Shown here: positions 10,001 through 26,629 of the stretch, in pieces
How positions within the stretch are numbered: position 1 is the first letter of the stretch
Layout of the letters: each line of letters starts with the position of its first letter
Notes under the pieces: generated by a model
What the model was told of the DNA's origin: nothing
What the model saw: the letters and a program-made list of their open reading frames with translations, nothing else
Databases searched by the model: none
Assembly (NCBI GenBank): GCA_965195345.1
Contig: OZ239628.1
Coordinates: 387,940-419,939, forward strand
DNA from: an uncultured Thiomicrospira sp.
Lineage (GTDB): Bacteria; Pseudomonadota; Gammaproteobacteria; CAKMZV01
Reading direction: 5' to 3'
DNA: 32,000 nt
Made by a program: the position numbers and the translations under genes

Positions 10001-10023
10001 AGCCAATAGTTAGAGAGAATGCA

Positions 10024-10464
10024 ATGAGTATTGAAGCTATTATTGATAAATGGATTGACCAGTCAGGTCCTTTGTTGCCTATTTTGCTTGATGTCAAGAA
10101 AGAATATGGCTCTATCAGTGATGAGGCAATCGATGAGATAAGTAAAGGGCTAAATTTAAGCCGTGCTGAAGTATATGGAGTGGTTAGCTTTTATGAAGAT
10201 TTTCATCGTGACTCCCTCGTAAATTCTAAGGCAAAGCGCATTATAAAAGTATGCACTGCTGAAGCTTGTCAAGCTCAGGGTTGTCGTACGCTGGTCAACC
10301 AGTTGGAAGAAAAACACAAGCAGAAACTCAATGAGAAAGGAACAGATATCACTATTGAGTCGGTGTATTGTCTAGGAAACTGTGCGTTAGGTCCGAGTGT
10401 GATGTTAGGAGATTGCGTTTTTGGTAGAGCAACTTTGGAGAAAGTAGATAAATGGATAGCGTAA
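10024..10464 (+). CDS. fdsG: NAD-dependent formate dehydrogenase gamma subunit (NuoE-like 2Fe-2S); the ORF-track start is 9997
   Basis: Thioredoxin-like 2Fe-2S pattern CTAEACQAQG...CLGNCALGP; located directly before the beta subunit gene. Confidence 0.9.
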   Translation: MSIEAIIDKWIDQSGPLLPILLDVKKEYGSISDEAIDEISKGLNLSRAEVYGVVSFYEDFHRDSLVNSKAKRIIKVCTAEACQAQGCRTLVNQLEEKHKQKLNEKGTDITIESVYCLGNCALGPSVMLGDCVFGRATLEKVDKWIA

Positions 10465-11978
10465 AATTTTATATTCCATTCGACACCAGTGCAGTTTCTG
10501 TAGGAGCAAGCGCGGTGGCTGAGGCTGTGATGAAGGCTTATCCAAACACAACGATTGTACGTAATGGATCACATGGTGCTTTATGGCTTGAGCCTTTGGT
10601 TGAAGTGGAAAGCAAAGGCGTTCGATATGCTTTTGGCAATTGTTCTGTTGAATGCGTTAGCACATTGATTCAAAATGGTGCGATTAATACGCAACATGAA
10701 AACTATCTGGGTGAGACAAAATCTCTTGATTTCTTTGCTAGTCAAAAGCGGGTAGTGTTTGATAAGTGTGGCTGGATTGATCCTTTTGATTTCTCTCAGT
10801 GGTCAGCATATGGAGGAGGCGTTGGTTTAAGACATGCTGTTCAAATATCTGGTCAAGAAATTATAGACAATGTTAAGTCTTCAGGACTGCGCGGACGTGG
10901 AGGCGCAGCGTTTCCAACGGGAATAAAATGGCAGACGGTACATGATGCGCAAGCAGATCAGAAATACATAGTGTGCAATGCCGATGAAGGTGATAGCGGA
11001 ACGTATGCTGATCGAATGCTGATGGAAGGGGATCCACTAACACTCATAGAAGGGATGGCAATTGCTGGCGTTGCAGTCAATGCAACAGTAGGATTTATTT
11101 ACATTCGCTCAGAATATCCAATTGCCATTAAGCACTTTAAGAAAGCCATTCTGTTGGCTTATGAGAACAACATGTTAGGGCGCGATATATTCGGTAGCGG
11201 CAAGCACTTTGATATGGAAATTCGCGAGGGGGCGGGTGCGTATATATGCGGTGAAGAAACATCGTTATTGGAAAGCCTTGAAGGAAAACAAGGCACGATT
11301 CGTTTTAAACCACCATTGCCAGCTTTGGAAGGGATGCTGGGTAAACCAACGGTTGTTAATAATGTCATTAGCCTTGCGAGTTGTCCGTATATATTGTCTA
11401 ATCCGGGAAATTTTGAAAAGCTAGGTTGCAATCGTTCAACAGGAACGTTGACTGTACAACTATGTGGGAATGTTAGACATGGTGGTTTGTATGAAATGGA
11501 ATTTGGTTTTAATTTGAAAGATATGGTTGAGCAGATAGGTGGCGGTACGCTAACTGGCAAACCAGTGCGTACTATGCAAGTAGGAGGCCCGCTTGGTCCG
11601 TATTTGCATCCAGACGAATTTGATACTCCGTGTGATTATGAAGAATATGCAGCGAAGAAGTTGATGATTGGACATGGAGGAGTAGTTGTTTTTGATGATG
11701 ATGTTGATATGAGTGAACAAGCTAAGTTTTCTATGCAATTTTGTGCGGATGAGTCTTGTGGAAAATGCACTCCTTGTCGCATTGGGTCAACGCGTGGGGT
11801 AGAATTGATTGCTGCTATTCAAAAAGGTGAGAAAAGACAGCATTACAAATTAGTTTTAGAAGAATTGTGCGATACGATGGAAAAAACATCTTTATGCGCA
11901 ATGGGGGGGCTGACACCGATGCCCGTTATGTCAGCAGTAAATAAATTCCCTACTGACTTTGGGTTTGAAAAAGATTAG
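10452..11978 (+). CDS. fdsB: NAD-dependent formate dehydrogenase beta subunit (NuoF-like FMN/4Fe-4S)
   Basis: GLRGRGGAAFPTGIKW, CNADEGDSGTYADR, GAGAYICGEETSLLESLEG, ESCGKCTPCRIG. Confidence 0.95.
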   Translation: MDSVKFYIPFDTSAVSVGASAVAEAVMKAYPNTTIVRNGSHGALWLEPLVEVESKGVRYAFGNCSVECVSTLIQNGAINTQHENYLGETKSLDFFASQKRVVFDKCGWIDPFDFSQWSAYGGGVGLRHAVQISGQEIIDNVKSSGLRGRGGAAFPTGIKWQTVHDAQADQKYIVCNADEGDSGTYADRMLMEGDPLTLIEGMAIAGVAVNATVGFIYIRSEYPIAIKHFKKAILLAYENNMLGRDIFGSGKHFDMEIREGAGAYICGEETSLLESLEGKQGTIRFKPPLPALEGMLGKPTVVNNVISLASCPYILSNPGNFEKLGCNRSTGTLTVQLCGNVRHGGLYEMEFGFNLKDMVEQIGGGTLTGKPVRTMQVGGPLGPYLHPDEFDTPCDYEEYAAKKLMIGHGGVVVFDDDVDMSEQAKFSMQFCADESCGKCTPCRIGSTRGVELIAAIQKGEKRQHYKLVLEELCDTMEKTSLCAMGGLTPMPVMSAVNKFPTDFGFEKD

Positions 11979-11995
11979 GAAATCTGGAGATCGCC

Positions 11996-14779
11996 ATGAA
12001 ATATATTGACTTGACAGACTACGGAACGCCTGTTTCAAAAAATACTACTATGGTCAATTTGACTATAGATGGCGTTAATGTTAGGGTTGCAGAAGGGACG
12101 AGTTTGATGCGTGCTGCAATCGAAGGGGGAATTCATATCCCTAAACTGTGCGCAACGGATTCACTTAATCCTTTTGGCTCATGTCGTTTGTGTATGGTTG
12201 AAATAGTCGGTCGTCCTAATCCAGTTGCTTCGTGTCATACGAATGTGACTGAAGGGCTAATTATTCGCACACAAAACGAACAATTGGCGAAGTGGCGTAA
12301 GAATCTTATGGAGTTGTACATATCTGATCATCCTTTAGATTGTTTGACTTGTGCCGCTAATGGCGATTGTGAGCTACAGGATATGGCAGGAGTGGTTGGC
12401 TTGCGTGATGTGCGTTATCCTAAAGGAGGCATAACGCATTTGGAGCAAGAAAAAGACGAATCCAATCCTTATTTCACATTTGACCCAAGCAAGTGTATTT
12501 TGTGCTCTCGTTGTGTGCGTGCTTGCGATGAGGTGCAAGGAACATTAGCGTTAACCATAGAAAAGCGAGGATTTAACTCAAAAGTTTCAGTGGCAAATGT
12601 TGACTTTATGGCTTCTGATTGCGTTTCGTGTGGCGCATGTGTTCAAGCCTGTCCAACAGCTACGTTGATGGAAAAAAGTGTTATTGCATTCGGTTTGGGT
12701 GAGAACAAAACAATTACCACTTGTGCTTATTGCGGAGTAGGTTGTAATTTTGTTGCACACACTCAAGGCGAACAAGTGACGCACATGGTGCCTTATAAAG
12801 ACGGGAAAGCGAACCATGGTCACTCTTGTGTTAAAGGGCGATTTGCTTGGCAATATGCGACCCATGAAGAACGAATAACAAAACCTTTAGTCCGTGAGAG
12901 TATTCATGATGAATGGAGAGAGGTTAGTTGGGATGAAGCTTTTGAGTTTGCTGCAACAAGGTTGAAGAATATCCAAGAAAAATACGGTGTTGATTCGATT
13001 GGAGGTATTACTTCGTCGAGGTGTACTAATGAGGAAACCTATTTGGTGCAAAAACTCGTACGAGCTACTTTTAAAAATAACAATGTTGATACTTGTGCTC
13101 GAGTTTGTCATTCACCCACAGGATATGGACTAAAACGTACTTTTGGAGCATCGGCAGGCACTCAAAATTTTGACTCAGTACAGCATACTGATTTGATCTT
13201 TGTAGTTGGAGCCAACCCTACGGATGCGCATCCAGTGTTTGGATCTCGTATGAAACGTCGTTTGCGTGAAGGGGCGCAGTTAATAGTGCTTGATCCACGG
13301 CAAATAGATTTGGTCAAAAGTCCTCATATTAAAGCGAATGTGCACTTGCCCCTAACTCCAGGAACAAATGTTGCTGTTCTTAATGCTATCGCTCACACGA
13401 TCGTTAAGGAAGGACTGCAAGATCAAGATTTTATAAGCAAACGCTGTGATTTAGACACCTTTAAAGATTGGCTAACCTTTATTCAACATGAAAAAAATGC
13501 ACCTGAGACGATCGCCTCTCAATCAGGACTGGACGTAAATGACATTAAAAAAGCAGCAAGGCTGTATGCTAAAGCACCGAATGCTGCGATTTACTATGGG
13601 TTGGGAGTTACGGAGCATTCGCAAGGGTCTTCAACAGTAATGGCAATAGCTAATTTGGCAATGTTGACAGGGAATATTGGTCGAGAAGGTGTTGGTGTTA
13701 ACCCATTACGTGGACAAAATAATGTACAGGGCGCATGTGATATGGGTTCTTTCCCTCATGAGTTGCCCGGTTATCGTCACGTTGGTGATCCTAAAGTACG
13801 CGAATTATTCGAATCAGAGTGGGATGTTGAATTGTCCGCTGATCCTGGATTGCGCATTCCTAATATGTTTGATGCCGCCACTGCTGGTTGGTACAAAGGC
13901 ATGTATATTCAGGGTGAAGACTTAGTGCAATCTGATCCGAACTCTCATCATGTGATAAAGGCCTTTGAAAACATGGAGTGCGTTATAGTCCATGATCTGT
14001 TTTTGAATGAAACGGCTAAATACGCACATGTTTTTTTTCCAGGAGCTTCCTTTTTGGAAAAAGATGGAACATTTACTAACGCAGAAAGGCGTGTTAATCG
14101 TGTTCGTAAAGTCATGTCACCGTTAGGTGGTATGTCAGAGTGGGAAGTAATCTGTGCTTTAGCAAAAGCAATGGGGTACTCAATGGAGTACAACCATCCT
14201 AGTGAAATCATGGATGAAATTGCGCGAACTACTCCAGGATTTGCTAATGTAAGCTATGACTTGCTTGATGAGAAAGGAAGTATTCAATGGCCTTGCAATG
14301 ACGCATCACCAGAAGGGACGCCTATTATGCACCAAGAATATTTTGTGCTTGGTAAAGGACATTTTATCAATACTGAATACGTGCCCACAAGTGAAAAAAC
14401 CAATCGTAAATATCCCTTATTACTTACTACTGGACGAGTATTGCATCACTATAACGTAGGCACACAAACGAGGCGCACGGCCAATTCAAAGTGGCAACCA
14501 GAAGACATATTAGAAATTCATCCAAGCGATGCGGAGTCAAGAGGTATTGTTGACGATATGCGCGTTGCAGTCACTTCACGCTCAGGTGAAACTTATTTGC
14601 ACGTGCGCGTTTCAGAAAAAATGGAACCAGGTGTTGTTTATACAACTTTTCATTTTCCAGAAAGCAATACCAATGTTATTACTACGGATAATTCAGATTG
14701 GGCAACAAACTGTCCCGAGTACAAGGTGACGGCTGTGGAAGTTCGTCCTCATGATCAGGCTATTCCTAAAGTTGGGTGA
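11996..14779 (+). CDS. fdsA: NAD-dependent formate dehydrogenase catalytic alpha subunit (molybdenum, Fe-S)
   Basis: N-terminal NuoG-like clusters and 2x[4Fe-4S] (CILCSRCVRACDE, CVSCGACVQACP), CAYCGVGCNF, active-site-like CARVCHSPTGYGL, C-terminal molybdopterin-binding region. Confidence 0.96.
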   Translation: MKYIDLTDYGTPVSKNTTMVNLTIDGVNVRVAEGTSLMRAAIEGGIHIPKLCATDSLNPFGSCRLCMVEIVGRPNPVASCHTNVTEGLIIRTQNEQLAKWRKNLMELYISDHPLDCLTCAANGDCELQDMAGVVGLRDVRYPKGGITHLEQEKDESNPYFTFDPSKCILCSRCVRACDEVQGTLALTIEKRGFNSKVSVANVDFMASDCVSCGACVQACPTATLMEKSVIAFGLGENKTITTCAYCGVGCNFVAHTQGEQVTHMVPYKDGKANHGHSCVKGRFAWQYATHEERITKPLVRESIHDEWREVSWDEAFEFAATRLKNIQEKYGVDSIGGITSSRCTNEETYLVQKLVRATFKNNNVDTCARVCHSPTGYGLKRTFGASAGTQNFDSVQHTDLIFVVGANPTDAHPVFGSRMKRRLREGAQLIVLDPRQIDLVKSPHIKANVHLPLTPGTNVAVLNAIAHTIVKEGLQDQDFISKRCDLDTFKDWLTFIQHEKNAPETIASQSGLDVNDIKKAARLYAKAPNAAIYYGLGVTEHSQGSSTVMAIANLAMLTGNIGREGVGVNPLRGQNNVQGACDMGSFPHELPGYRHVGDPKVRELFESEWDVELSADPGLRIPNMFDAATAGWYKGMYIQGEDLVQSDPNSHHVIKAFENMECVIVHDLFLNETAKYAHVFFPGASFLEKDGTFTNAERRVNRVRKVMSPLGGMSEWEVICALAKAMGYSMEYNHPSEIMDEIARTTPGFANVSYDLLDEKGSIQWPCNDASPEGTPIMHQEYFVLGKGHFINTEYVPTSEKTNRKYPLLLTTGRVLHHYNVGTQTRRTANSKWQPEDILEIHPSDAESRGIVDDMRVAVTSRSGETYLHVRVSEKMEPGVVYTTFHFPESNTNVITTDNSDWATNCPEYKVTAVEVRPHDQAIPKVG

Positions 14780-14806
14780 ATACAGGAAACTAAAAGGTAT
14801 TATTTC

Positions 14807-15019
14807 ATGAAACAATCACGATTTGACCCCGATCGCATTGTATCGCTCGCTAATCAAATAGCTGAAAATCAATTTGGTATGAGTGAGACTGAGGCAGTGA
14901 AGATGGTGGCGACGCATATTAATGCTTTTTGGAACTCCAGCATGAAACAAGTTTTACATTCGTTGGACGAAAAAAAACTACACCCATTTTGTGCAAAAGC
15001 GCTTGAAGATATTAACTGA
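14807..15019 (+). CDS. fdsD: Formate dehydrogenase delta subunit
   Basis: FDPDRIVSLANQIAENQF...EAVKMVATHINAFWNSSMKQVL matches the FdsD pattern; directly follows fdsA. Confidence 0.85.
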   Translation: MKQSRFDPDRIVSLANQIAENQFGMSETEAVKMVATHINAFWNSSMKQVLHSLDEKKLHPFCAKALEDIN

Positions 15020-15164: not shown

Positions 15165-16394
15165 ATGTTTTTTTCATGTAATAAGATAAAGAAAGATGTT
15201 TTTAAATCTTCAAAGATGCTTTTTTTGGGAGCATACTTTGTTATTTTATTGTCATCTGCTTTCATGACATTACCCGCGAATGCCGACGAACACGAACAGG
15301 CTACAGAAACCTCAACAAATACTATTCAGCCAAGAGAACAAGCAAAAAAAGAAAATCCAGAGGTGCTGCCCTCTCACTTGCCGATTAAGAATATTCAATT
15401 CACTCCCTCTAAAAAAGAAAAAATTTTCTTTCATCATAACGATGAAAGAGACGAAGAACTTAGGGTGATCATATTGCAACAATTATTTGATCCTCTATTA
15501 TGGGAAAAGGCAAAAGTGAGCGCCATACAGTCAAAAATTGAATCTGCTTATATTGTTTATGATGATTCTAAAGGGGAGCGACAACATAGCCCTGATTTTT
15601 ACGATAGCTTAGAAAGCGCTCTGCTTAAAAAGATGGTTCAAACTACAGATATATCATTCAAAGGATGTGCTTACTCTTGTGTGCAGAAAAAAACAATCAC
15701 CATAACACAAAGTCGCTTGATTATTAGTACGAAGAACTTAAATAGACGCATTCGAAAAGAAATTGAATCGGGTGAAGTACAGGGCATTTTAAAATGGAGT
15801 TTCTTCTCAAATGCAGCTGGCAGTAAAGGAGGAATATCTGTTAGCCTACTCAATGCAAACAATAAGATTGTTTGGACCGATACGATTTTTGCAGACATTA
15901 ATGAGTTAATAGTAGCTGACGAAAACAAAGCGTCAGAAGGTGAAAGCCAATTAGGTATAGCATTGATGAGTCAGAGAATTCAGTTTGAAGAAGGAACGGA
16001 TCCAGTAACAGAATCAAACCAAAATGTTGTGGTGAGTTTTGGTTATAGAGAACGCATTACACCGTTCACCAGACTTAAATATTATTTAGGGGGGCGTGTG
16101 CTGTATAGCACTGGTTTAGCAAATAACTATTTTGCCATTTCAGCGAGTGCTCGTATAGGTTATACCATTTTTAATCTGCCCAAACGCGACGTTGATTTTT
16201 TCATAGGATTCGAGCAAGACCTCATATTAGTTCAAGGATTTAATGGCACACTTGCTGTAGATTGGCAGCTGAGTGATGCTTTTTATTTGCGAGGGATTTA
16301 TGAGCTGCCGTTGGATTCAGAACGCACAGATAATTTTGGTCAAGAGTATACCCTTAGTCCGGGTTTTTTGTTAGAAATGGGGGTTAAACTGTGA
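15165..16394 (+). CDS. Secreted/outer-membrane protein of unknown function; mixed N-terminal domain and C-terminal beta-strand-rich region. First gene of the putative motor cluster; start uncertain
   Basis: Signal-like MLFLGAYFVILLSSAFMTLPANA; alternating amphipathic segments from about ERITPFTRLKYYLGGRVLY to the C-terminus. Its stop overlaps the next gene by 4 nt. Confidence 0.6.
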   Translation: MFFSCNKIKKDVFKSSKMLFLGAYFVILLSSAFMTLPANADEHEQATETSTNTIQPREQAKKENPEVLPSHLPIKNIQFTPSKKEKIFFHHNDERDEELRVIILQQLFDPLLWEKAKVSAIQSKIESAYIVYDDSKGERQHSPDFYDSLESALLKKMVQTTDISFKGCAYSCVQKKTITITQSRLIISTKNLNRRIRKEIESGEVQGILKWSFFSNAAGSKGGISVSLLNANNKIVWTDTIFADINELIVADENKASEGESQLGIALMSQRIQFEEGTDPVTESNQNVVVSFGYRERITPFTRLKYYLGGRVLYSTGLANNYFAISASARIGYTIFNLPKRDVDFFIGFEQDLILVQGFNGTLAVDWQLSDAFYLRGIYELPLDSERTDNFGQEYTLSPGFLLEMGVKL

Positions 16395-16960
16395 ACGGGC
16401 TTAAAATATTATTTATCATCTCTGCAGTGATTTTTTTGTCAGGCTGCAGTTCAACAGAAGAGTTACAAACTTTGGATGCGGGCAGAGCAATCAAAGAGGG
16501 AGACGGTAAGGAAAATCTACCCTCGTCATTAATTGTTGAAAATGGCGTTATTTTTTTTAGAAAAGAAAGTGGTGGTGAAAAAATCGAATTTATTTTTAAT
16601 ATTGGTGAAAATGAAAACATCGAGTACGAGATAGAATTTGCTCCCCCTGAGAAAGAAAAGAGCGATCATCTTCCTGCCCAAAATAGTACCTCTGTAAGTG
16701 GCGAGTCTAAAAAGCTTGCGGATCGATTATTCCTATCTGCACAAGGCTATTTTTTAGAAGGAAATTATCGTCGAGCTTTGGTTGAGGTTAATCGAGCGCT
16801 ACGAGAAGACATGAAGTCTGGACTTCTTTGGGCTTTAAAGGGTTCCATACACTATAAGCTTAATGAATTTGGATTGGCACGCAATGCATGGAGTAAGTCG
16901 CAGGAATTAGACAAAGATATTACAGGCGTTCGAGAAATGTTATTAAAAATAGGGACGTAA
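16391..16960 (+). CDS. Lipoprotein with TPR-like repeats (GTG start)
   Basis: MNGLKILFIISAVIFLSGCSS lipobox; TPR-like AQGYFLEGNYRRALVEVNRALREDMKSGLLWALKGSIHYKLNEFGLARNAWSKSQELD. Confidence 0.75.
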   Translation: MNGLKILFIISAVIFLSGCSSTEELQTLDAGRAIKEGDGKENLPSSLIVENGVIFFRKESGGEKIEFIFNIGENENIEYEIEFAPPEKEKSDHLPAQNSTSVSGESKKLADRLFLSAQGYFLEGNYRRALVEVNRALREDMKSGLLWALKGSIHYKLNEFGLARNAWSKSQELDKDITGVREMLLKIGT

Positions 16961-16988: not shown

Positions 16989-19172
16989 ATGAAAAGTTTT
17001 TTTGTAAAAATCATAGCAAATGTAGTCACTATTTTTGTGATTGCCGTTACGGGGGTACATGCACAAGAGATTGAACGAGCAGGGCAAGTAGATGCCATAA
17101 AGCAGAGTGTTTTTGAGCGGGATTTGGAAAATAATATTAGCAGTGCGCTCAGGTTACAGCTCGGTAGCATTCCTTTTTTGGTTCAAGTGAGTGCTGAATT
17201 GCGCTCGATAAAAACATACGCGATTGATACTGTCTCCATATATCAGCCGAGTTCTGTTGAAGCGCCTTCTCTTGAAAGTAAAAAAACAATTGTGAGACAA
17301 CAGCTGCAAGAAGTTGATGCTGGTAGAACGAATCAAAACATTGATCCTGCTGACGATGGAGGCCAAGGTATTTCAAATGCTTTGCCAGGAGCCCCAATTC
17401 TTTTGACGAATAGTGACGATGGATCTGAGCAAAATCAGCCGAGAAGAAGTCAACCTATAACTGAGGTCATTCAATCAACTGAGCCTATCAGTGAAGCGTC
17501 AGAAAGTCAACCGAGAAGTGTTGGTCGATTTGTGAATACCACCCGTGAAACGTTCATTGAAAGTCATGTGTTAATTGACAGAATTGACGTCAAGCTATGG
17601 CTTCCATCTGATTTGGAACCTAGTAGAATTCGTTTTCTCAAACACTTGGTTTCTGAAAAAGCAAGAATTAATTTAATAAGGGGCGATCAGTTTACAACTA
17701 TTTTAACAAATTTTCCAGAAACTGAAAAAAAGGAAGATACCCTAACAACTAACCAGAATAGCTCAACTGAGTCTATAAATATTGATAATATTGGTCGGAG
17801 AATAGGATTAGATAGAGTAGTAAGTGAGCTGAGTCAAAACAATTGGTTACCTTGGGCGCTTGCTGGGTTACTCTTTTTATGGTTATTGTTTTTGCTTTTC
17901 CGCAAAAAAAGAACCGCGCATCACCAACCGCCGATCGCAACGTACCATCACAGCGATGTTCCATTTAACCCTCCATCATTAACGAACATCAACCCTCCTG
18001 AATCCGCATCTCTTGAAGATAAACAACAAGATCACGAACATAAACAGCGATTGAAAATTCTTAATGAAGACATAGTGAGTAATATCATGCTGCATGAAGG
18101 GTTGTTGCTGAATGCGCTAAATAACCCTAACCTTGCAATAGAAAAAGTACGATTTACGGCTTGGTTGATTAAATTGCTTGGCACAGCCGTGGTTGCAAAG
18201 TATGCATATGATCAGCTTAATGAAAGCGAATTAAAAAACGCGAATGCGTTGCAAGAAGTTATTGAACAAAGCACATTGATAGAACAATGTGAATGGGCAG
18301 CAAAGGTGCATAGAAGCTTACGCGATAGTGAGTCGCTTTCTAATAAAAATATTTCCCAACCTTTTGATTTCTTAAATGAAATGAATGATCAGAAATTGAA
18401 ACGCTTGCTAAATGAAGAGCATGTGCAGGCAAAAGCACTGATACTTTCTCAAATTGATCAACGACGCTCGGCAGCAATCCTTGCTATGTTTTCTGCTGAG
18501 GAACAAGCAAGTATTGCCATAGCAATGGGGAAACTTACGACACTTCCAGTATCTTCATTTCATGACATAGCTAATCAATTAGCTCGTAAGGCTCAAAGCA
18601 TTCCAGAAGTAAATGAGCTTAACATTGATGGAACGGAAGCGCTAGTGCAGATGATAGAGTCCATGGATTTGGCGAATGGAACAGCGTTCCTGAATGAATT
18701 GAGAAAACAAAATCCTGATCAATATTATCGCATTAAGAAATTGTATATGGGCTTTGAGGATATTCCAAAAATTCCGAAGGCTATATTGAAAAACTTTTTG
18801 CGTGAAATTGAACGAGAAGAGTTGGTTACGGCACTGTACGATGAGGAAGATGCTTTTAGAGAACAGTTACTCAGTGCGCTTCCTGATCGAGCAAAGGCAT
18901 TAGTTCAGCAGTTATTGAGTGAAATACAAACACCAACTGCAGCAAAGATTATGCAATCGAAAAAAATGATTAGCACCAAAGCAAGGCAGTTATTGCGAGC
19001 TAAAGTATTTGAATTACCAACAGATGAAGAGACCTTCACAGCGTCTTCAACATCTGAAGCAGGGCTACAAGAAGAGTCTATAGTTCCCTCTATAGAGGTT
19101 GAGTCAAGGCTTTCGGAAGAGTCAAACACAGGGTCAAGAAGCTCCTCAAACCTTAATAACTTAGAAAAATGA
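16989..19172 (+). CDS. Membrane protein: FliF C-terminal-like periplasmic region plus transmembrane helix fused to a cytoplasmic FliG-like region
   Basis: Signal peptide; FliF-like FERDLENNISSALRLQLGSIPFLVQVSAELRS and ...RIDVKLWLPSDLEPSRIRFLKHLVSEKARINLIRGDQFTTILTNFP; single TM WLPWALAGLLFLWLLFLLFRKKR; FliG-like FEDIPKIPKAILKNFLREIEREELVTALYDEEDAFREQLLSALPDRAKALVQQLL. Confidence 0.75.
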   Translation: MKSFFVKIIANVVTIFVIAVTGVHAQEIERAGQVDAIKQSVFERDLENNISSALRLQLGSIPFLVQVSAELRSIKTYAIDTVSIYQPSSVEAPSLESKKTIVRQQLQEVDAGRTNQNIDPADDGGQGISNALPGAPILLTNSDDGSEQNQPRRSQPITEVIQSTEPISEASESQPRSVGRFVNTTRETFIESHVLIDRIDVKLWLPSDLEPSRIRFLKHLVSEKARINLIRGDQFTTILTNFPETEKKEDTLTTNQNSSTESINIDNIGRRIGLDRVVSELSQNNWLPWALAGLLFLWLLFLLFRKKRTAHHQPPIATYHHSDVPFNPPSLTNINPPESASLEDKQQDHEHKQRLKILNEDIVSNIMLHEGLLLNALNNPNLAIEKVRFTAWLIKLLGTAVVAKYAYDQLNESELKNANALQEVIEQSTLIEQCEWAAKVHRSLRDSESLSNKNISQPFDFLNEMNDQKLKRLLNEEHVQAKALILSQIDQRRSAAILAMFSAEEQASIAIAMGKLTTLPVSSFHDIANQLARKAQSIPEVNELNIDGTEALVQMIESMDLANGTAFLNELRKQNPDQYYRIKKLYMGFEDIPKIPKAILKNFLREIEREELVTALYDEEDAFREQLLSALPDRAKALVQQLLSEIQTPTAAKIMQSKKMISTKARQLLRAKVFELPTDEETFTASSTSEAGLQEESIVPSIEVESRLSEESNTGSRSSSNLNNLEK

Positions 19173-19948
19173 AAACACTAATTAGTCGATTAATAGCAAT
19201 GGCTTTGGTAGGGTACGCAGCTTACAGCATTATTGTTTTTCCAGAGCATACAGCTCTTTTTACGCATGCAGAATCAGTGATTTTGGTATTGGGTGGTACA
19301 TTCGCAGCAAGCCTGATGAGCTTTAATATTGAGACAATATTGAAGGCATTTTTAAGCTTTTTTAAAGGTCTTATTTATGCCTCAGACAATCAGTCAAAGA
19401 TCAGAGAAATAAAAGAAATCATTACAATTGCAGAACGCGTTAATGAAACAAACGGATTCGGATGTATTGATGATATGTTAGAACAAAAAAAAAAATATTC
19501 AGATTTTGTGCGATTAGGATTAGAGCTGATTTCTGCGGGTTACAGCGAAGTTGGACTTAGAGTACAGCTAACAAATTTTGCAGATGAACTAGATGAAGAA
19601 GAGCGTTTGATGGAAGACGTTTGGTTTCAATTTGCAAACTATGCTCCAGCTTTGGGAATGGTTGGAACAGTTATAGGGTTGATTCTTATGTTGGATAATC
19701 TTGATGTCAATAGTTTAAATATTGGAGCTGGACTTTCATTGGCACTGTTGACTACTTTGTACGGTGTTTGTATAGCGAACTTTATTTTCAAACCAACTGC
19801 TCGGTTTTTAGCTGAAGAACGATTGAAAAAATCCAGAAATTTAGCACTTTATTTAGAAGCAATGCTAATGGTACAAAAAAAAACAAGTCCAATTTTAATG
19901 AAAGATTACTTAAATAGTAGCTTGCCTATTAAATTGCAATTAAAGTAA
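19169..19948 (+). CDS. MotA/PomA-like stator protein
   Basis: Four hydrophobic segments, ESVILVLGGTFAASL near TM1-2, and ANYAPALGMVGTVIGLILML, typical of MotA TM3. ATGA overlap with the preceding gene. Confidence 0.88.
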   Translation: MKTLISRLIAMALVGYAAYSIIVFPEHTALFTHAESVILVLGGTFAASLMSFNIETILKAFLSFFKGLIYASDNQSKIREIKEIITIAERVNETNGFGCIDDMLEQKKKYSDFVRLGLELISAGYSEVGLRVQLTNFADELDEEERLMEDVWFQFANYAPALGMVGTVIGLILMLDNLDVNSLNIGAGLSLALLTTLYGVCIANFIFKPTARFLAEERLKKSRNLALYLEAMLMVQKKTSPILMKDYLNSSLPIKLQLK

Positions 19949-20014: not shown

Positions 20015-20734
20015 ATGAATTCAGTTTTACGCAAAAAAAAGTCTATCAATAGAACAGATAACCTTTGGTTAATAACCTATTCAGATGTTGTGACGTTACT
20101 GTTGGTTTTTTTTGTGCTAATCATCGCTTTTTCAGTCGTTGATCAATCTAAATTTGAAGTGATTGCTGAAGCCATAAAAGCAAATAAGTTCGATGGGAAA
20201 AAGACGCTTCCTTTTCAAAAATTTGAACAAGAATTGCAAAAAATTATCGAAAAAAATGATTTAGAAGAAAAGGTTGTTGTAAATAAACAACCTCTAGGCG
20301 TTAGTATTGAACTTTCTGGTGAAAGTCTATTCCAATCTGGAGAAGCTATTTTGAATGCAACGGGTAGCCTCGCAATAAAACAATTAGCGAAGGCTATAAA
20401 AAACATTGAATATCCTAACTATCAAGTAGAGATTGAAGGACATACCGATGATGTGCCAATAAATAATGAGAAATACTCTTCCAATTGGGAATTGTCTGTC
20501 TTTCGCGCCATTGATGTGCTTAAGCTGTTAACAGAGCAGGGAATACCCAATGATAAATTCAAAATAGCTGGTTACGGAGAAACAAAACCTAAATATTCAA
20601 ATGAAACGGCTGATGGTTTACCTAATGTCGCTAACAGAGCTAAAAACAGACGAATAGAGATTAATGTTTTTCGTAAGGAGCGGCGTTATAGGGAATCGTC
20701 AACAAAAGAGGAAAATCAAAACACAGAAAAGTAG
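20015..20734 (+). CDS. MotB/PomB-like stator protein with OmpA-type peptidoglycan-binding domain
   Basis: N-terminal TM with acidic residue WLITYSDVVTLLLVFFVLIIAFS; C-terminal VEIEGHTDDVPINNEKYSSNWELSVFRAIDV...ANRAKNRRIEINVF. Confidence 0.9.
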   Translation: MNSVLRKKKSINRTDNLWLITYSDVVTLLLVFFVLIIAFSVVDQSKFEVIAEAIKANKFDGKKTLPFQKFEQELQKIIEKNDLEEKVVVNKQPLGVSIELSGESLFQSGEAILNATGSLAIKQLAKAIKNIEYPNYQVEIEGHTDDVPINNEKYSSNWELSVFRAIDVLKLLTEQGIPNDKFKIAGYGETKPKYSNETADGLPNVANRAKNRRIEINVFRKERRYRESSTKEENQNTEK

Positions 20735-20794: not shown

Positions 20795-22210
20795 ATGCAA
20801 AGAAAGGGTATGGGATTCATATTTAACCGAATAAATGCTCTTACTTTTTCTAGTATGAGAAAAAAAAATCCAATTCTACTGGTCTGCTCTTTTGTGGTGT
20901 TTCTCTCCTTCCCTATAAAAGCAACGAGCAATTTTCAACCTTCCCAATTGAGAACTTTGTTTAATCCTGCCGCTGAGAATCCATCAGCAGCAGTTATCTA
21001 CAGTTACTTATTCAATGATAGTGATATCGGGTTGCAAGTATATGGAGAAGCGCAAGGACTAGTAGAAAACACCATAGATGAGAATCAACTTCTAATGGAG
21101 TTGAACGGTATTATAAATTCTAATATTGGCGTTAATTCTATTAATCAATTTGAAACACAAATAAATAATTTCCTTAGAACTACTCAACCTATTCTTCGTG
21201 GTAATGCAAACGCAATCCTCGCTTTTCGAAAAGGATCAAATACAAAAAAAACTGCTGTCACTCTTAGTTATGATGATAGTCTCTTGTACTATCAACAATT
21301 GCGATTTATCAATGGCGTTGATGTTGATGTGCCGGCAGTAACAGCCTTAATTGCGGGCAACACGACCATTGATTCTGCAGATTTTTTGAACGCTATTGAT
21401 ACTGATGTGGGCATTAATAATACATTGGCACGTATCAGAACGTTCAGCTTAGGATATAGCCATCGCTACACGATTAATCCAATAATTAAATTCAGCTATG
21501 GTGTGCGTTTTAAAGCACAATCGGCATCTATTTCTTCAAACTTGGTGGACTTTCGAACAGTTATATCCACGACCAATGAGGTAGTTCAGTTAGAAAGTGC
21601 TGATATATTTGGAAATTTTGACACAGCAAACGAGCATATATATGGTAATGTTGATTTAGCTCTAACATTGCATGGAAGACAATATTTTATAAGCATATAC
21701 TCACTGGATACCATACCGCAAAGGTTAGCATTACCAAGTTTTTCCGATACATGCGAGTCTGTAAATGATTGTGCTATATCAGCACTGTATCCAAATGGGA
21801 ATGAGTTTTTTTATATCGACCCTAAAGTGCGTTTTGAATACAGCTATCTGTCACGACGCAAGCAATTTCGCTTTAGCTTTTTGTACGATATACTCCCTTG
21901 GAGAGATGGAAGTACTGCCGAGCGCCAACTGCTAACTATCCATACTGAAATTGCGACGACTAAGCGAAACACTAATAGACCCTATTGGGGACATCCCTCC
22001 CCTTCGATAAGGCTATCTGCTTTTATAGATGATGCTTCTTCTTTCGTGAATGATACTCTTATTCAGACAGGGTTCAGTGCATGGTTTATAGATTTAAACT
22101 TCACATTTGGCTTTAGAAAACCAGGTATATTAGTCTCTAGACCATCTAGAATTGAGAACAGCAGGACACTTCTACGCGGCATTCAGTTGGGAGTTAACGT
22201 TGATTTTTAA
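20795..22210 (+). CDS. Predicted outer-membrane beta-barrel protein of unknown function
   Basis: Signal-like MRKKNPILLVCSFVVFLSFPIKA, many alternating-hydrophobicity strands, C-terminal ...LLRGIQLGVNVDF ending in Phe. Follows the MotB-like gene by about 60 nt. Confidence 0.6.
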   Translation: MQRKGMGFIFNRINALTFSSMRKKNPILLVCSFVVFLSFPIKATSNFQPSQLRTLFNPAAENPSAAVIYSYLFNDSDIGLQVYGEAQGLVENTIDENQLLMELNGIINSNIGVNSINQFETQINNFLRTTQPILRGNANAILAFRKGSNTKKTAVTLSYDDSLLYYQQLRFINGVDVDVPAVTALIAGNTTIDSADFLNAIDTDVGINNTLARIRTFSLGYSHRYTINPIIKFSYGVRFKAQSASISSNLVDFRTVISTTNEVVQLESADIFGNFDTANEHIYGNVDLALTLHGRQYFISIYSLDTIPQRLALPSFSDTCESVNDCAISALYPNGNEFFYIDPKVRFEYSYLSRRKQFRFSFLYDILPWRDGSTAERQLLTIHTEIATTKRNTNRPYWGHPSPSIRLSAFIDDASSFVNDTLIQTGFSAWFIDLNFTFGFRKPGILVSRPSRIENSRTLLRGIQLGVNVDF

Positions 22211-22224
22211 AAGCGATATTCTTA

Positions 22225-22812
22225 TTATTTTACAGAATCGATTAATTCCATTAAATTGCCTTTATGCATTCTAATTTCATCTTCAGATAAGCCGACTAAT
22301 TCGTGAGGGAATACTAGCCAGTCGGTTGTTTTATGCACGTGAAAATCGGGTTCAATAACTGTTTGATTATTATTTGGTTTGTAATAAGCAGTGGCAATCT
22401 TTATTTTGGGAGTGTTTTTTCGGCAATGAAGTTTGATGTCATTTACCACCTGCTGGATACTCAAACCAGTATCAAAAACATCGTCAACGATGAGTAAAGA
22501 ATCGGTATCATTAACGTTTTCAATAATATAGTGTAGGCCATGAACGCGGATATTACGTTCACGCTCAGCAATACCAGTATAAGAAGAAGTACGTATGGCG
22601 ATGTGATCGGTTTTAATGCCAAGATATTGTAGCAACTCCTGTACGGCAATACCGACGGGTGTTCCTCCACGCCATATTCCGACAATGTAGTTTGGGACGA
22701 AGTTGCTTTTGTGGATTTCAATGGCTAGTTGGTAAGAAACATCAAGCAATTCTTGGCTGCTTAAGTATACTTTAGGGACGGTTTCCTTGTTGTCTGGGTG
22801 GTTAGTTGACAT
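22225..22812 (-). CDS. Hypoxanthine-guanine-type phosphoribosyltransferase; start chosen at MSTNHPDN, the ORF-track start is 22875
   Basis: IVGIWRGGTPVGIAVQELL and PRPP loop SLLIVDDVFDTGLSIQQV. Confidence 0.85.
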   Translation of the reverse strand: MSTNHPDNKETVPKVYLSSQELLDVSYQLAIEIHKSNFVPNYIVGIWRGGTPVGIAVQELLQYLGIKTDHIAIRTSSYTGIAERERNIRVHGLHYIIENVNDTDSLLIVDDVFDTGLSIQQVVNDIKLHCRKNTPKIKIATAYYKPNNNQTVIEPDFHVHKTTDWLVFPHELVGLSEDEIRMHKGNLMELIDSVK

Positions 22813-22813
22813 A

Positions 22814-23425
22814 TTACTCCATGTTTTTTTTGTGCTGATTGTAAACAATAAGGCTATGAAAAATAATTTGGGCAAGTAAAGAAGTTATGATTTGTTGAGT
22901 AAAAGCAGAGATGATGCAAAATATAAGTCCACCGATTGCCGCACTCAACCATTCTTTGCTTGGGCAGAAACGCCAAAGAGACCAAGCTAAAGTACTGACT
23001 ATGATGACTTTCCAAGAGGGCAGTTCATAGAACCAATTAAAGATGCTTGCACGAAATAGTAATTCCTCACCAAGAGGAATTAAGGCAACAAATACAAAAA
23101 TTGCGATAGGGTTTTTACCGCCACAAAAAACAGGTAACTTGAAAAAGTGAAATGAAAGCATGAACAAAACCGCACCCAAGAAAATACCCAGCAGTAATGC
23201 TAATGGCATGCTCGAAGTGAATAAGTAATCTTCAAAGTCAAATACAAAGTCTTCGCGTGTGAAAAACCATGCAAAGTAAAACCCAATCAAAATGACGAAG
23301 CGCAAGCGCATGATAGAAACGGATAGAAGATCGCTTTTTTTACTAATTTTAGCCAACAAAAATATTGCTAATATAAGCATTCCAGGTGTAAAAAGCCAAA
23401 TTAGATTAAGAATTGTTTCGGTCAT
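22814..23425 (-). CDS. CPBP-family intramembrane glutamic protease
   Basis: Multiple TM helices; EELLFRASIFNWF (EExxxR) and C-terminal FHSLIVY. Confidence 0.75.
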   Translation of the reverse strand: MTETILNLIWLFTPGMLILAIFLLAKISKKSDLLSVSIMRLRFVILIGFYFAWFFTREDFVFDFEDYLFTSSMPLALLLGIFLGAVLFMLSFHFFKLPVFCGGKNPIAIFVFVALIPLGEELLFRASIFNWFYELPSWKVIIVSTLAWSLWRFCPSKEWLSAAIGGLIFCIISAFTQQIITSLLAQIIFHSLIVYNQHKKNME

Positions 23426-23558: not shown

Positions 23559-24845
23559 TTACAAATAACGCGCTAACATGACAAATGGGCCGTTGATTTC
23601 GGGAAGTGGTAATTTTATAGTGACTCCGCCACCTTTTGCTTCCTCAATTTTTTGTCCCTTGTCCGTTTCAATGTGCTCTACATGAATATCAAAATTACCT
23701 TGCGGTTGGACTACTTCAAGGCGATCTCCAGTCTTTATTTTGTTTTTGGTGAGTACAGTTGCAATACCATTGTTGTAATCTGTAACTTCAGCACAAAATT
23801 GTTGCTGACGAGAGGTTGAATGTGAATCAACATAATTCTGATAGTCAGCGTTATGATGTCGCTGAAAAAAACCATCGGTATAACCTCTATTAGATAAGTT
23901 TTCTAAGTCGGAGATAAGGTTAGGGTCGAATGGCTTGTTTGAACAAGCATCATCGATAGCTTGACGGTAAGATTGGGCAGTACGGGCTACGTAGTAATGT
24001 GATTTAGTGCGTCCTTCAATTTTCAAACAATGCACACCAAGTTTGGCTAGTGCATGGACATGTTCGATTGCGCGCAAATCTTTGGAGTTCATGATGTATG
24101 TGCCATGATCATCTTCTTCAATTGGAAGGAATTCACCAGGACGGTTGCTCTCTTCCAATAACCACGTTTTCTGTGGAGGTGGACTAATTTCTTTGATGAT
24201 GGTGCCTTTTTGTTCATCATTGACGCCTTCATGGACCTGATAGTTCCAGCGACAAGCATTAGTACAAGTGCCTTGATTTGGATCGCGATGGTTAAAATAA
24301 CCTGATAAAAGGCACCGTCCTGAATAGGCAATACATAGGGCACCGTGGACAAAAACTTCCAGTTCAACTCCAGGACAGTGATCTTTAATAGATTCAATTT
24401 CGGTTAGTGAAAGTTCTCGAGAAAGAATGACACGTTCGATGTTTGCAACTTCATGCCAAAAGCGTACGCTTGCCCAGTTGACGGCATTGGCCTGTACTGA
24501 AAGGTGAATTGGAATGTCGGGCCAATTTTCTCTTGTAAGTGCTATCAATCCAGGGTCGGCCATGATTAGAGCATCTGGATTACAGTCAATGATTTCCTCT
24601 ATATCTTTAACAAACGTTTTAAGTTTAGAGTTGTGAGGTAAAAGATTAACGGTGCAGTAAAATTTCTTGCCTTGAGCATGCACTTCTTCAATGCCCTTTG
24701 CAAGATTAGGAATAGTAAATTCATTATTGCGGGCACGCAGTGAATACCGAGGAGGCCCAGCGTATACTGCATCTGCTCCAAAGGCCAATGCAAAGCGCAT
24801 GTTCTTTAAAGTTCCAGCGGGTGAGAGGAGTTCAGGTTTTTGCAT
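23559..24845 (-). CDS. trhP: Peptidase U32-family protein (TrhP/YegQ-like tRNA hydroxylation protein)
   Basis: ELLSPAGTLKNMRFALAFGADAVYAG; VHGALCIAYSGRCLLSGYFNHRDPNQGTCTNACRW; KIEGRTKSHYYVA. Confidence 0.88.
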   Translation of the reverse strand: MQKPELLSPAGTLKNMRFALAFGADAVYAGPPRYSLRARNNEFTIPNLAKGIEEVHAQGKKFYCTVNLLPHNSKLKTFVKDIEEIIDCNPDALIMADPGLIALTRENWPDIPIHLSVQANAVNWASVRFWHEVANIERVILSRELSLTEIESIKDHCPGVELEVFVHGALCIAYSGRCLLSGYFNHRDPNQGTCTNACRWNYQVHEGVNDEQKGTIIKEISPPPQKTWLLEESNRPGEFLPIEEDDHGTYIMNSKDLRAIEHVHALAKLGVHCLKIEGRTKSHYYVARTAQSYRQAIDDACSNKPFDPNLISDLENLSNRGYTDGFFQRHHNADYQNYVDSHSTSRQQQFCAEVTDYNNGIATVLTKNKIKTGDRLEVVQPQGNFDIHVEHIETDKGQKIEEAKGGGVTIKLPLPEINGPFVMLARYL

Positions 24846-24884
24846 AGTAATGGTTAGAAGGGTAAGAGGGAAGCTATATGATTG

Positions 24885-25490
24885 CTATTTAAAACTATCC
24901 AAGATAGACTTCAACTCCTTTGGATTAGGGTTCGTATGTTTCAAATTATTAAAGATACCTTTTAGTTGATCGCAAGCACTTTTAAAATCGGCGTTAATTA
25001 TTAAGTAGTCGTATTTTGTATGGTTTTTAATCTCATTACGCGCTTCTTGTAAACGTCGTGATATGACATCAATCGCATCGGTAGAACGCGCACGTAGGCG
25101 AGTTGCTAAAGTTTGAAAATTAGGAGGGATGATGAAAATACTTTGGGTATCACTTTTCTTTGAGCGAATTTGATCCGCGCCCTGCCAGTCAATTTCAAGT
25201 ACAACATGCTTACCATTATCTAAGTTTTTTTCCACAGTGCTTCGTGCAGTGCCATAAAGATTACCAAACACATAAGCATATTCCAAAAAAGCATCTTGTT
25301 CGATGAGTTCTAAGAATTTTTGTTCATTAACAAAGTAGTAATTTTCGCCATCAGTCTCATTATTGCGAATAGGTCGAGTCGTGTGAGAAATAGACAAAAC
25401 CGTATTGTTCAACTCACTAAGAGCACTTGCAAGAAGGGAGGATTTGCCTGTTCCAGAAGGAGCAGATACTATAAAAAGTGTCCCTCGCAT
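24885..25490 (-). CDS. gmk: Guanylate kinase
   Basis: P-loop IVSAPSGTGKSSLL; SHTTRPIRNNETDGENYYFV; LEIDWQGADQIR. Confidence 0.97.
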   Translation of the reverse strand: MRGTLFIVSAPSGTGKSSLLASALSELNNTVLSISHTTRPIRNNETDGENYYFVNEQKFLELIEQDAFLEYAYVFGNLYGTARSTVEKNLDNGKHVVLEIDWQGADQIRSKKSDTQSIFIIPPNFQTLATRLRARSTDAIDVISRRLQEARNEIKNHTKYDYLIINADFKSACDQLKGIFNNLKHTNPNPKELKSILDSFK

Positions 25491-25504
25491 ATTCTAAAAA
25501 GGAG

Positions 25505-26629
25505 TTATATGGTCATCGGCATGATGACGTGCTGCAAGTGTACATCATCATCTTTTTCTTCAATAAGAACGCTGGCAGTGGGCGTGGATATTTTTATATT
25601 GATGATGGGTTGACTTAATGTGCTTATCGTTTGCTGTAGGTAGCCTTCATTAAAGGCAATTTCAAGATGTTCACCATCATAAGAAGCAGACATGACAACT
25701 TCGGACTTTTCCTGCTCGGCATTTAAGCAAGTTATCGTAGCAGTGTCGTCTTCTTTGGCTATTAAGCGCACCTGCCTCGTAGAATCTTTGTTAATAAGCG
25801 TCGCCTGTTTCAATGTTTTTGAGAAGCTGTCGCAATCAGCACTGAAGGTGTAATCATTATTTTGAGGGATAACACCGGCGTAGGAAGGAAAAGAACCAAC
25901 GATTAATTTGCTGGCAAACGTTAGGTTTTCTGTGCGCTTTAGCTGAAATGAAATGAAATTGTCACTGATTGAAAGAGTCAGGTCTCCTTTTTCATCTTCA
26001 AGCAATCTTTTAATTTCAGTGACTGCTTTGAGCGGAATAATAATACTACAATCGCTATCAATTTCTTTTTCTAAAGAAGATACCGCACTTGCTAAACGAT
26101 GACCATCGGTGGCGACTACTCGGATTTGAGTTCCTTGGGCTTCAAGTAACATGCCTCGCAAAGGCGCTCTGATATCCTTAGTTGAAATGGCAAAAGATAC
26201 TTTATTGATAAGTGTTTTTAGTGTTTTCTTAGAAACAGTTATTGATTGATCAAAGTTGGTAAGGTCTAGCTGCGGAAATCCTTCGGAAGGCAAGGTTGAA
26301 AGATTGTAGCGTGCGTAATCAGTATGAATGACCGCTTGTGTATCAGAAAATTCAATGGCGATGGTTTCTGCTGTGGTGCTTGACACGATGTCGAGAAGTT
26401 TTTGAGCTCCAAGTGTCGTATCAAATTTACCTCCAGCGATCTCTCCTTCAGGCATTGGTAGTTGAGCAACCATTTGCAATTCAGTATCTGTAGTGGTGAG
26501 GACCATTCCAGATTCATCAACTTGCAGTTTTACGTTGCCAAGGATCGGCAAAATTTTCACACGATCAATAACACTTGCTATATTTTGTAGCACTTGATAG
26601 AGTGGCTTTCTCTCAAATAATAGTTTCAT
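25505..26629 (-). CDS. dnaN: DNA polymerase III beta sliding clamp
   Basis: MKLLFERKPLYQVLQ.., VVATDGHRLA, C-terminal HVIMPM; directly downstream of dnaA. Confidence 0.97.
   Translation of the reverse strand: MKLLFERKPLYQVLQNIASVIDRVKILPILGNVKLQVDESGMVLTTTDTELQMVAQLPMPEGEIAGGKFDTTLGAQKLLDIVSSTTAETIAIEFSDTQAVIHTDYARYNLSTLPSEGFPQLDLTNFDQSITVSKKTLKTLINKVSFAISTKDIRAPLRGMLLEAQGTQIRVVATDGHRLASAVSSLEKEIDSDCSIIIPLKAVTEIKRLLEDEKGDLTLSISDNFISFQLKRTENLTFASKLIVGSFPSYAGVIPQNNDYTFSADCDSFSKTLKQATLINKDSTRQVRLIAKEDDTATITCLNAEQEKSEVVMSASYDGEHLEIAFNEGYLQQTISTLSQPIINIKISTPTASVLIEEKDDDVHLQHVIMPMTI

Follow-up and report, generated by a model that had tools for sequence, protein, structure and literature searches.

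Can the rotor and stator of the flagellum be used before or without the export apparatus and the filament? This is a standing question on the origin of the flagellar motor, which to our knowledge has not been described outside a flagellum. The question is raised by a locus of an uncultured Thiomicrospira sp. (contig OZ239628.1 of the assembly GCA_965195345.1). The whole stretch of DNA analysed here (positions 387,940–419,939 of the forward strand, 32,000 nucleotides) is called the window, and coordinates below are those of the window unless another locus is named. It contains a gene whose product joins a shortened FliF to a FliG in one polypeptide. The gene belongs to an operon that also encodes the stator proteins MotA and MotB, and no other flagellar gene is found within the 32-kb window. 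This operon context is a larger finding than the fusion itself. On balance, the locus probably encodes a ring rotor that is driven by MotAB and linked to the outer membrane, with neither a secretion apparatus nor a rod nor a filament.

The fusion gene and its parts are as follows (+, plus strand; aa, amino acids; RBM, ring-building motif; TM, transmembrane; AF2, AlphaFold2; pLDDT, predicted local distance difference test).

16989..19172, +, FliF (RBM3 to C-tail)–FliG (N-M-C) fusion, the proposed rotor; uninterrupted open reading frame (ORF) of 727 aa
16989..17063, +, signal peptide, aa 1–25, with a VHA/QE site; hydropathy and the -3/-1 rule applied by eye (heuristic)
17067..17708, +, RBM3-like ring-building domain with beta-collar hairpin, aa 27–240; AF2, Foldseek and profile
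17256..17522, +, disordered collar-tip loop, aa 90–178; pLDDT 40–50
17382..17396, +, LPG(A/L)P motif in the collar-tip loop, aa 132–136; family-invariant
17679..17687, +, RGD motif, aa 231–233, common to FliF (KRGDTLNVV); profile alignment
17844..17903, +, single TM helix, aa 286–305, equivalent of FliF TM2; hydropathy, AF2 helix 287–305 and FliF alignment
18012..18092, +, cytoplasmic helix, aa 342–368, equivalent of the FliG-binding C-tail of FliF; profile, AF2 and split homologue
18120..18353, +, FliG_N, about aa 378–455; profile, Foldseek and alignment of unfused FliG
18357..18608, +, FliG middle domain, aa 457–540, with EHVQ (aa 477–480) at the EHPQ motif; Pfam FliG_M
18630..19001, +, FliG C-terminal (torque) domain, aa 548–671, with R634 as the equivalent of E. 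coli R281; Pfam FliG_C

The cytoplasmic half is a FliG, with a similarity well past what chance would give. In Pfam, FliG_M is matched at aa 468–539 (46 bits against a cut-off of 25) and FliG_C at aa 570–671 (61.6 bits against 23.3). The best sequence match in PDB is the FliG-MC of T. maritima (aa 457–656, E = 5e-13). The FliG_N domain is also present. A family profile built from 113 homologues covers it in matching residues 11–327 of A. aeolicus FliG (3hjl), and the same profile matches the isolated FliG_N chain 5tdy_B at E = 8e-5. In Foldseek, full-length FliG structures align over 310–328 columns of the AF2 model with E of about 1e-10. FliG_N, FliG_M and FliG_C follow one another in the order of FliG, and the fusion carries a whole FliG, its N domain included. 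The score against the FliG equivalog TIGR00207 of NCBIfam is 75.1 bits, below the cut-off of 226.7, which indicates a divergent relative and no ordinary FliG.

The FliF identity of the periplasmic half is seen at the level of the family. Neither YscJ_FliF nor YscJ_FliF_C is matched by Pfam in the window protein alone, so that its link to FliF rests on profiles and fold. The 113-homologue profile matches residues 227–558 of Salmonella FliF (E = 2e-15) and also Vibrio FliF (E = 6e-12). The engineered Vibrio FliF–FliG fusion 8z4d is matched over residues 270–937 in a single collinear alignment (E = 5e-53), in which FliF and FliG together span about 570 profile positions. A second profile was made from the N-terminal segments of 28 members, cut about 40 residues past the TM helix. 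Its top PDB match is Salmonella FliF, residues 234–507 (E = 2.6e-6); other FliFs come next, and SpoIIIAG follows them at E = 0.07. YscJ_FliF_C (PF08345) is detected by Pfam in 18 of these 28 segments, with a best E of 8.9e-9. YscJ_FliF (PF01514), which corresponds to RBM1/2, is found neither in them nor in the window protein.

The predicted fold agrees with the profiles. The AF2 model, based on the 113-sequence alignment, has a mean pLDDT of 78, and the RBM3, the collar hairpin and the FliG domains exceed 90. The structured periplasmic region is a single RBM. It consists of strand 27–33, helix 36–58, strand 64–86, strand 180–206, helix 211–225 and strand 234–240 (pLDDT 94–98), that is, a beta-alpha-beta-beta-alpha-beta unit whose long collar hairpin has two strands and ends in a disordered tip loop. 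The part after the TM helix is all-helical. In Foldseek, RBM3/collar structures of FliF match the N-terminal part of the model with E of 4e-5 to 4e-4, and SpoIIIAG matches it with 0.19. Within the tip loop, L132, P133 and G134 are conserved in at least 90% of the 113 family members. This loop presumably sits where FliF has an unresolved collar loop containing VPGALSNQP. In the family alignment G232 and D233 are invariant and R231 is nearly so, and the RGD of the family aligns with the RGD of FliF when the N-terminal profile is compared with FliF. Downstream of the membrane, FliG_N is preceded by the FliF-tail-like helix aa 342–368; the profile alignment ends at residue 558 of the 560 of FliF. 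Binding of this tail to FliG_N would be moot in a fused protein.

By hydropathy, the fusion protein has two hydrophobic segments, aa 5–23 and aa 286–304, and no others. The former precedes VHA/QE, which by eye matches the -3/-1 rule, and signal-peptide-like N-termini with AXA or SAQ sites are seen throughout the family. The protein has one internal TM helix where FliF has two, and the other hydrophobic segment ends, family-wide, in a site of the signal-peptidase type. RBM1, RBM2 and TM1 are absent in the whole family, with a cleavable-looking signal peptide in their place. As RBM1 and RBM2 house the export gate, the protein could not offer a type III export gate the seat that it has in FliF.

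A preliminary description, made from the sequence of the window alone, had read this gene as a FliF–FliG fusion reduced to one periplasmic domain. Much of it was borne out. The FliF-like peptides that it quoted lie in the ORF at aa 42–73 and 198–243, the single TM helix is at the place given and aligns to FliF TM2, and the signal peptide holds as a heuristic judgement. So does its proposal that the first TM and the early ring-building motifs were replaced by that peptide. Profile searches led to FliF (RBM3, TM2 and C-tail) and FliG and to no unrelated family, and the AF2 monomer compared by Foldseek has the RBM3-like domain and the helical FliG N, M and C domains. The resemblance to FliF is significant for the family but not for the window sequence by itself. 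The M and C domains of FliG had been recognised and lie above the Pfam thresholds, while FliG_N and the FliF C-tail had been overlooked. Its simplified ring with a covalently attached rotor is right as to the fusion, for the reason given next; ring formation and rotation stay conditional. MotAB, the TPR lipoprotein, the barrel proteins of the operon and the absence of other flagellar genes were not part of that description.

A split form of the protein exists. At L013:1-3227, one of 12 related loci (L002–L013) compared with the window, the two halves are separate genes: the 3' part of motA, cut by the contig end, is accompanied by MotB, a 382-aa short FliF and a 310-aa FliG. In this short FliF, a signal peptide and YscJ_FliF_C are followed by a TM helix and an 80-residue tail. 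The 310-aa FliG contains the N, M and C domains and aligns to aa 390–668 of the window protein (E = 7e-32). The presence of both as unfused proteins indicates that the window protein is a true fusion of FliF and FliG. About six more FliG-like proteins of ~305–312 aa among the homologues (e.g., P0053, P0072 and P0128) may be split forms as well. The protein lacks several features that define FliF, namely RBM1/2, a second TM and the flagellar context, and it departs from FliG in its equivalog score, its charges and the EHPQ motif; it should be filed under neither. It represents a distinct family built from both.

Six genes form the operon, all on the plus strand, in the order X409, TPR lipoprotein, FliF–FliG, MotA, MotB and Y471 (TPR, tetratricopeptide repeat; OMP, outer-membrane protein). 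The partners of the fusion gene are the following.

15165..16394, +, X409, secreted; periplasmic alpha/beta domain and C-terminal small outer-membrane beta-barrel; first gene of the operon; ORF, AF2 and Foldseek
16391..16960, +, TPR lipoprotein, 189 aa; lipobox LSGC with Ser at +2; Pfam TPR_2 and LPAM_1
19169..19948, +, MotA/PomA-type stator A subunit, 259 aa; Pfam MotA_ExbB
20015..20734, +, MotB-type stator B subunit, 239 aa; plug, TM helix with Asp24, OmpA-like peptidoglycan-binding domain; Pfam MotB_plug and OmpA
20795..22210, +, Y471, secreted; OMP-like C-terminus (...GVNVDF); last gene of the operon, in this clade only; ORF

A gap of 145 nt separates the operon from the formate dehydrogenase genes upstream. 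The stop codon of X409 overlaps the GTG start of the TPR gene (GTGA), and the stop of the fusion gene overlaps the start of motA (ATGA); the rotor gene is translationally coupled to motA. Compared with a 98%-identical metagenome copy, all six genes show a ratio of nonsynonymous to synonymous polymorphism (pN/pS) of 0.00–0.21, from small counts that point in the same direction. All six genes are under purifying selection. A promoter and terminator scan of the operon gave no more sites than shuffled sequence.

The stator is of the flagellar type. MotA has four TM helices and both conserved prolines, and MotB has the plug, the TM aspartate and the OmpA-like domain; Asp24 is seen directly in the sequence. 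The best NCBIfam match of MotA is PomA, with 115 bits, below the equivalog cut-off, and PomA in PDB is matched at E = 1e-24. MotB scores 126–166 bits against MotD, MotB and MotS of NCBIfam, every one below its cut-off. As all these equivalog cut-offs are missed, MotAB is a divergent member of the stators. The TPR lipoprotein is probably anchored in the outer membrane. X409 has no match in Pfam, NCBIfam or PADLOC; by Foldseek its C-terminal half resembles OmpA-TM, Ail, OmpW, NspA and OmpX (E = 3e-4 to 2e-3). Y471 likewise has no family match in Pfam, NCBIfam or PADLOC. A homologue with 34% identity takes the same position in L002, and Y471 may be a barrel protein, judging from its sequence pattern.

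Zorya or another defence system was considered for these stator genes and rejected: PADLOC gave generic MotB-type ZorB matches and a marginal ZorA (E = 7e-4), ZorC and ZorD are missing, and MotA has a length of 259 aa.

The family is large. An exhaustive homologue search found 2227 proteins at E < 1e-3. Among the 150 best matches, most are about 560–780 aa long, with a signal peptide, about 170–280 periplasmic residues, one TM helix and FliG. Relatives of this size fall into more than 100 clusters at 50% identity. They come from Gammaproteobacteria, Fibrobacteraceae, and Bacteroidota-like and 'Deltaproteobacteria' metagenomes, and are annotated at the source as 'hypothetical protein' or 'FliG C-terminal domain-containing protein'. 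A three-sequence alignment search led to one GTDB genome only, a metagenome-assembled genome (MAG) of Gammaproteobacteria. A word-indexed search missed a 43%-identical relative that was found exhaustively, probably due to low-complexity words swamping the index; its low counts are uninformative on rarity.

The module recurs across phyla. Besides the window, 11 loci carry the fusion and only L013 is unfused. L002, from a Gammaproteobacteria MAG, contains the same six genes (42% identity) in a different neighbourhood. The sources of L003–L012 are MAGs of Gammaproteobacteria, a 'Deltaproteobacteria' MAG, Fibrobacteraceae, and Bacteroidota-like contigs on which PorZ or PorP/SprF is found; the marker genes Fib_succ_major, PorZ and PorP/SprF place some of them in non-flagellated groups. 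The rotor gene is adjoined by a stator gene, a TPR gene or both in all 12 related loci. A homologous TPR gene, in most cases with a lipobox, stands beside it in all 12 fused loci (BLAST), and MotA and MotB are adjacent in 10 of the 12, the exceptions being L007 and L010 (a 3.8-kb contig). An X-type protein of about 360–410 aa is part of the module at 10 of the 12 fused loci, if the window and a weaker candidate in L012 (profile match, E = 2.4e-10) are included; a protein of the same size and architecture occurs in 9 of the 12 related loci. No gene for FliM/N, FlhA/B, FliPQR, the rod or the hook is present in the Pfam-annotated lists of the window and the related loci, the flanks of L002 being judged by ORF size only.

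Two loci contain unusual versions of the TPR and MotB proteins. At L012:5291-6889, a 532-aa lipoprotein fuses an RBM3-like segment to the TPR domain of the module. The segment gives a weak match to YscJ_FliF_C, and BLAST relates it to the rotors encoded at L004, L005 and L008. Such a fusion suggests, as a hint of the Rosetta-stone type, that the TPR protein and the ring touch each other. At L011:4864-5982, a MotB of 372 aa carries extra C-terminal TPR repeats, a hint of TPR elements on the side of the stator or scaffold. As for genes nearby, exopolysaccharide (EPS) export genes (BBP2 porin, Wza, Wzc and Wzy) lie at L009:10614-16819, PorP/SprF at L011:5991-7070, a 1925-aa He_PIG/SprB-like adhesin at L003:508-6285, and a PilZ protein at L007:8456-8797. 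A function read from these neighbours was set aside, since each occurs in a single locus.

Based on these parts, the following mechanism can be proposed. After export and cleavage of the signal peptide, the RBM3/collar domains would assemble on the periplasmic side of the inner membrane, about 30 of them closing a ring. Every subunit would have a FliG attached on the cytoplasmic side, so that FliG would form a ring in a 1:1 ratio and with no FliM or FliN. MotA5B2 units anchored to peptidoglycan would conduct H+ or Na+ and push the FliG C domain, and the ring would turn in the membrane. The collar could hand rotation or force, via the conserved LPGxP loop, to the TPR lipoprotein and the outer-membrane barrel proteins. 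Surface motility, movement of an adhesin or polymer, and envelope remodelling are candidates for the output at the surface. With export gate, rod, hook and filament all missing, such a machine is not a flagellum. SpoIIIAG, like isolated FliF RBM3, oligomerises into a ring. Two points speak for the capacity to form a ring: the long collar hairpin would serve no plausible purpose in a monomer, and isolated FliF RBM3 forms rings (PMC8786727).

The interface between rotor and stator was compared in 8 aligned loci, with the torque residues mapped through T. maritima FliG by MAFFT. The E. coli FliG numbering used here is a reconstruction. The equivalent of R281 is kept in the window (R634); of the 8 loci, 6 have R at this position and 1 has K. 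Both conserved prolines (PomA P151 and P199) are kept in all 7 stators, and PomA E96/E97 corresponds to D-D in the MotA of the window. L005 keeps R-K and E-E in MotA, and E-E at FliG D288/D289; the window and L002 lack both sides of the pair of MotA R88/K89 and FliG D288/D289. These two positions look as if they covary, in a sample of at most 8 loci. Likewise, the pair of MotA-E98 and FliG-R281 appears to be retained and that of MotA-R90 and FliG-D289 to be lost on both sides. The charge pattern, in this small sample, fits a co-evolving contact.

Several observations count against a rotating ring coupled to the outer membrane. In the window, the torque-helix charges K264, D288, D289 and R297 are replaced by Y, Q, L and T, and the basic pair PomA R88/K89 is missing from MotA, which has E/T. 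The EHPQ motif reads EHVQ in the window, the family keeps the Glu only, and no fliM or fliN is near any locus; the loss of EHPQ fits the absence of FliM, and the ring may be organised unlike a C-ring. As noted, YscJ_FliF_C is not matched in the window protein alone. The AF2 model of X409, with strands at aa 260–408, is only moderate (mean pLDDT 61), and the homology of X409 to the X proteins of non-gamma clades is weak (hhalign probability 51%). L007 has no MotAB beside the rotor gene. Neighbouring genes vary by locus, and the surface- or motility-related ones do not recur. The absence of flagellar genes holds for the window and the flanks of the loci, and others may lie elsewhere in the genome of this organism. 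Ring formation, rotation and the contact of MotA with FliG are what we infer from the parts.

The main alternative is a fusion protein that does not rotate. It would be a membrane platform, ring or not, that recruits and unplugs MotAB, and the ion flow would energise an outer-membrane process via the TPR lipoprotein and the barrels. Force might then be transmitted as in ExbBD-TonB, TolQR-TolA-Pal or AglRQS-Glt, possibly in a linear or processive way and not by ring rotation. Most canonical torque charges are indeed lost and the FliM/N switch is missing, a MotA/B motor with a TPR lipoprotein and small barrels resembles Tol/Ton and Agl-Glt, and some neighbours (EPS export in L009, PorP/SprF in L011, the SprB-like adhesin in L003) hint at surface functions. 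However, the collar hairpin and RBM3 are the ring-building parts of FliF (PMC8786727), MotB has a plug of the flagellar type, and MotA is closest to PomA/MotP, not to ExbB/TolQ. All three FliG domains, the C domain included, are under selection, and the apparent covariation of the MotA/FliG charge pair would imply a contact of the flagellar type. A static platform, and likewise a linear mode of transmission, is considered unlikely.

A considerably poorer fit is a leftover of a lost flagellum, or a divergent FliF and FliG of an unusual flagellum with its other genes elsewhere in the genome. Every recognisable part is a flagellar homologue, and flagellar genes were surveyed at the level of loci. 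Against this, RBM1, RBM2 and TM1 are missing in every member, leaving no FliF-like seat for an export gate, and the six genes are intact with pN/pS of at most 0.21. The module with TPR lipoprotein and barrel also recurs in distant phyla, including Fibrobacteraceae and Bacteroidota-like contigs, and the six-gene cluster stands in different neighbourhoods in the window and L002. A relic or a scattered flagellum is very improbable. Least credible of all is a membrane-anchored regulator or sensor of ions or second messengers with MotAB nearby by accident or for regulation: the FliG fold is shared with the N domain of MgtE and a PilZ gene adjoins the L007 locus, but the Pfam match to MgtE_N is weak and below its own threshold while FliG_M and FliG_C are well above theirs, the match is collinear with FliF and FliG over about 570 profile positions, and 10 of the 12 fused loci have MotAB next to the rotor gene, translationally coupled to it in the window.

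If the proposed rotor driven by MotAB is real, the rotor-stator core of the flagellum is an independent and reusable module. It would be a minimal torque system of roughly five genes with a fixed 1:1 ratio of FliF to FliG and no switch complex, and it would point to a role at the envelope or surface of Fibrobacterota, of Bacteroidota-like bacteria and of uncultured Gammaproteobacteria. In a genome survey, rotor proteins were left unexplained in 11% of non-motile species (PMC12199754), and the module would explain the rotor proteins found in non-motile species in such surveys. It can be speculated further that the window protein is a member of a widespread, undescribed class that combines an RBM3 ring and FliG rotor with a MotAB stator, lacks type III secretion and is wired to the outer membrane. 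In the strongest form, the module would preserve the state of the motor before it joined a secretion system, and would serve as an extant model of how the flagellar motor originated. This wider reading is a tentative one, and we lean slightly away from it.

The remaining features of the window are these.

725..2683, -, 652-aa ORF without a Pfam match, adjoining a dimethylglycine-dehydrogenase-like gene and pntAB
8771..15019, complete NAD-dependent formate dehydrogenase cluster, directly upstream of the operon
22225..22875, -, phosphoribosyltransferase-like ORF
22814..23425, -, Rce1/CPBP-like ORF
23559..30853, -, dnaA, dnaN, gmk, lipoyl transferase, clpP and tig

The formate dehydrogenase cluster comprises FdhD, DUF7009, a 2Fe-2S thioredoxin-like subunit, a 51K-like subunit, the molybdopterin alpha subunit (927 aa) and FdsD, and is conserved in the 98%-identical metagenome contig. 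The phosphoribosyltransferase-like ORF, with a TTG start as listed, overlaps the upstream Rce1/CPBP-like ORF by 62 nt; in the metagenome annotation it has 195 aa, so its true start is probably further downstream. Near 8–9 kb (8000–9000), some 18 kb away from dnaA, the GC skew switches from negative to strongly positive, and it remains positive across the strand change of the genes. This switch and the dnaA region indicate that the operon is close to the likely region of the replication origin.

How does the module compare with known systems? No description of the fusion family or the module was found in the open-access literature, and a paper elsewhere could exist. Salmonella FliF–FliG deletion-fusion mutants reportedly support rotation. 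Laboratory fusions of Vibrio FliF and FliG form rings (PMC11481574). Since the engineered fusions form rings and the Salmonella ones are reported to support rotation, a covalent 1:1 linkage is compatible with function. The engineered fusions (Salmonella; Vibrio 8z4d/8z4g, PMC11481574) have the same order of parts as the window protein. They differ in containing a full-length FliF with three RBMs and two TMs, inside a complete flagellum.

The only natural FliF–FliG fusion found in the literature is that of Chlamydiaceae, bacteria not known as flagellated (Bergeron 2016, PMC4768692). It has about 330 aa, two TMs, an RBM2-like and a second RBM-like domain, and only a FliG-M-like region; it lacks a SpoIIIAG-like RBM3 and is linked to the injectisome, not to MotAB (PMC4768692). 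The window protein is the opposite, with RBM3 only, one TM, a whole FliG and MotAB. SpoIIIAG shares with it an RBM3-type domain in which an inserted beta-hairpin serves to build a large ring. The two differ in that SpoIIIAG has no FliG and no stator and belongs to the sporulation of Firmicutes, and their similarity is marginal.

In Myxococcus Agl-Glt/Nfs, and in Tol-Pal and ExbBD-TonB, an ion-driven inner-membrane motor of the MotA/B family works with TPR lipoproteins and small barrels. These systems use motors of the TolQR/ExbBD type and TonB/TolA-like connectors and have no FliF or FliG homologue, whereas the stator of the window module is of the flagellar type, with a MotB plug. GldLM/PorLM of type IX secretion is, like the proposed machine, a non-flagellar rotary 5:2 motor of Bacteroidota-Fibrobacterota that drives an outer-membrane process, and some loci of the family lie near PorP/SprF or PorZ genes. 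Its rotor is unrelated in sequence, GldM being a periplasmic shaft, and it has no FliG-like cytoplasmic ring.

The closest system is the rotor-stator core of the flagellum itself. The module differs from it in lacking TM1, RBM1 and RBM2, with no genes for FliM/N, export, rod, hook or filament nearby. It also has FliF and FliG as one polypeptide, diverged torque charges and EHPQ motif, and partners in the TPR lipoprotein and the barrel proteins. What the two have in common is RBM3 with the beta-collar, TM2, a counterpart of the C-tail of FliF, the N, M and C domains of FliG, the prolines of MotA, and the plug, Asp and OmpA-like domain of MotB. The principle of torque generation is probably common to the flagellar motor and the module.

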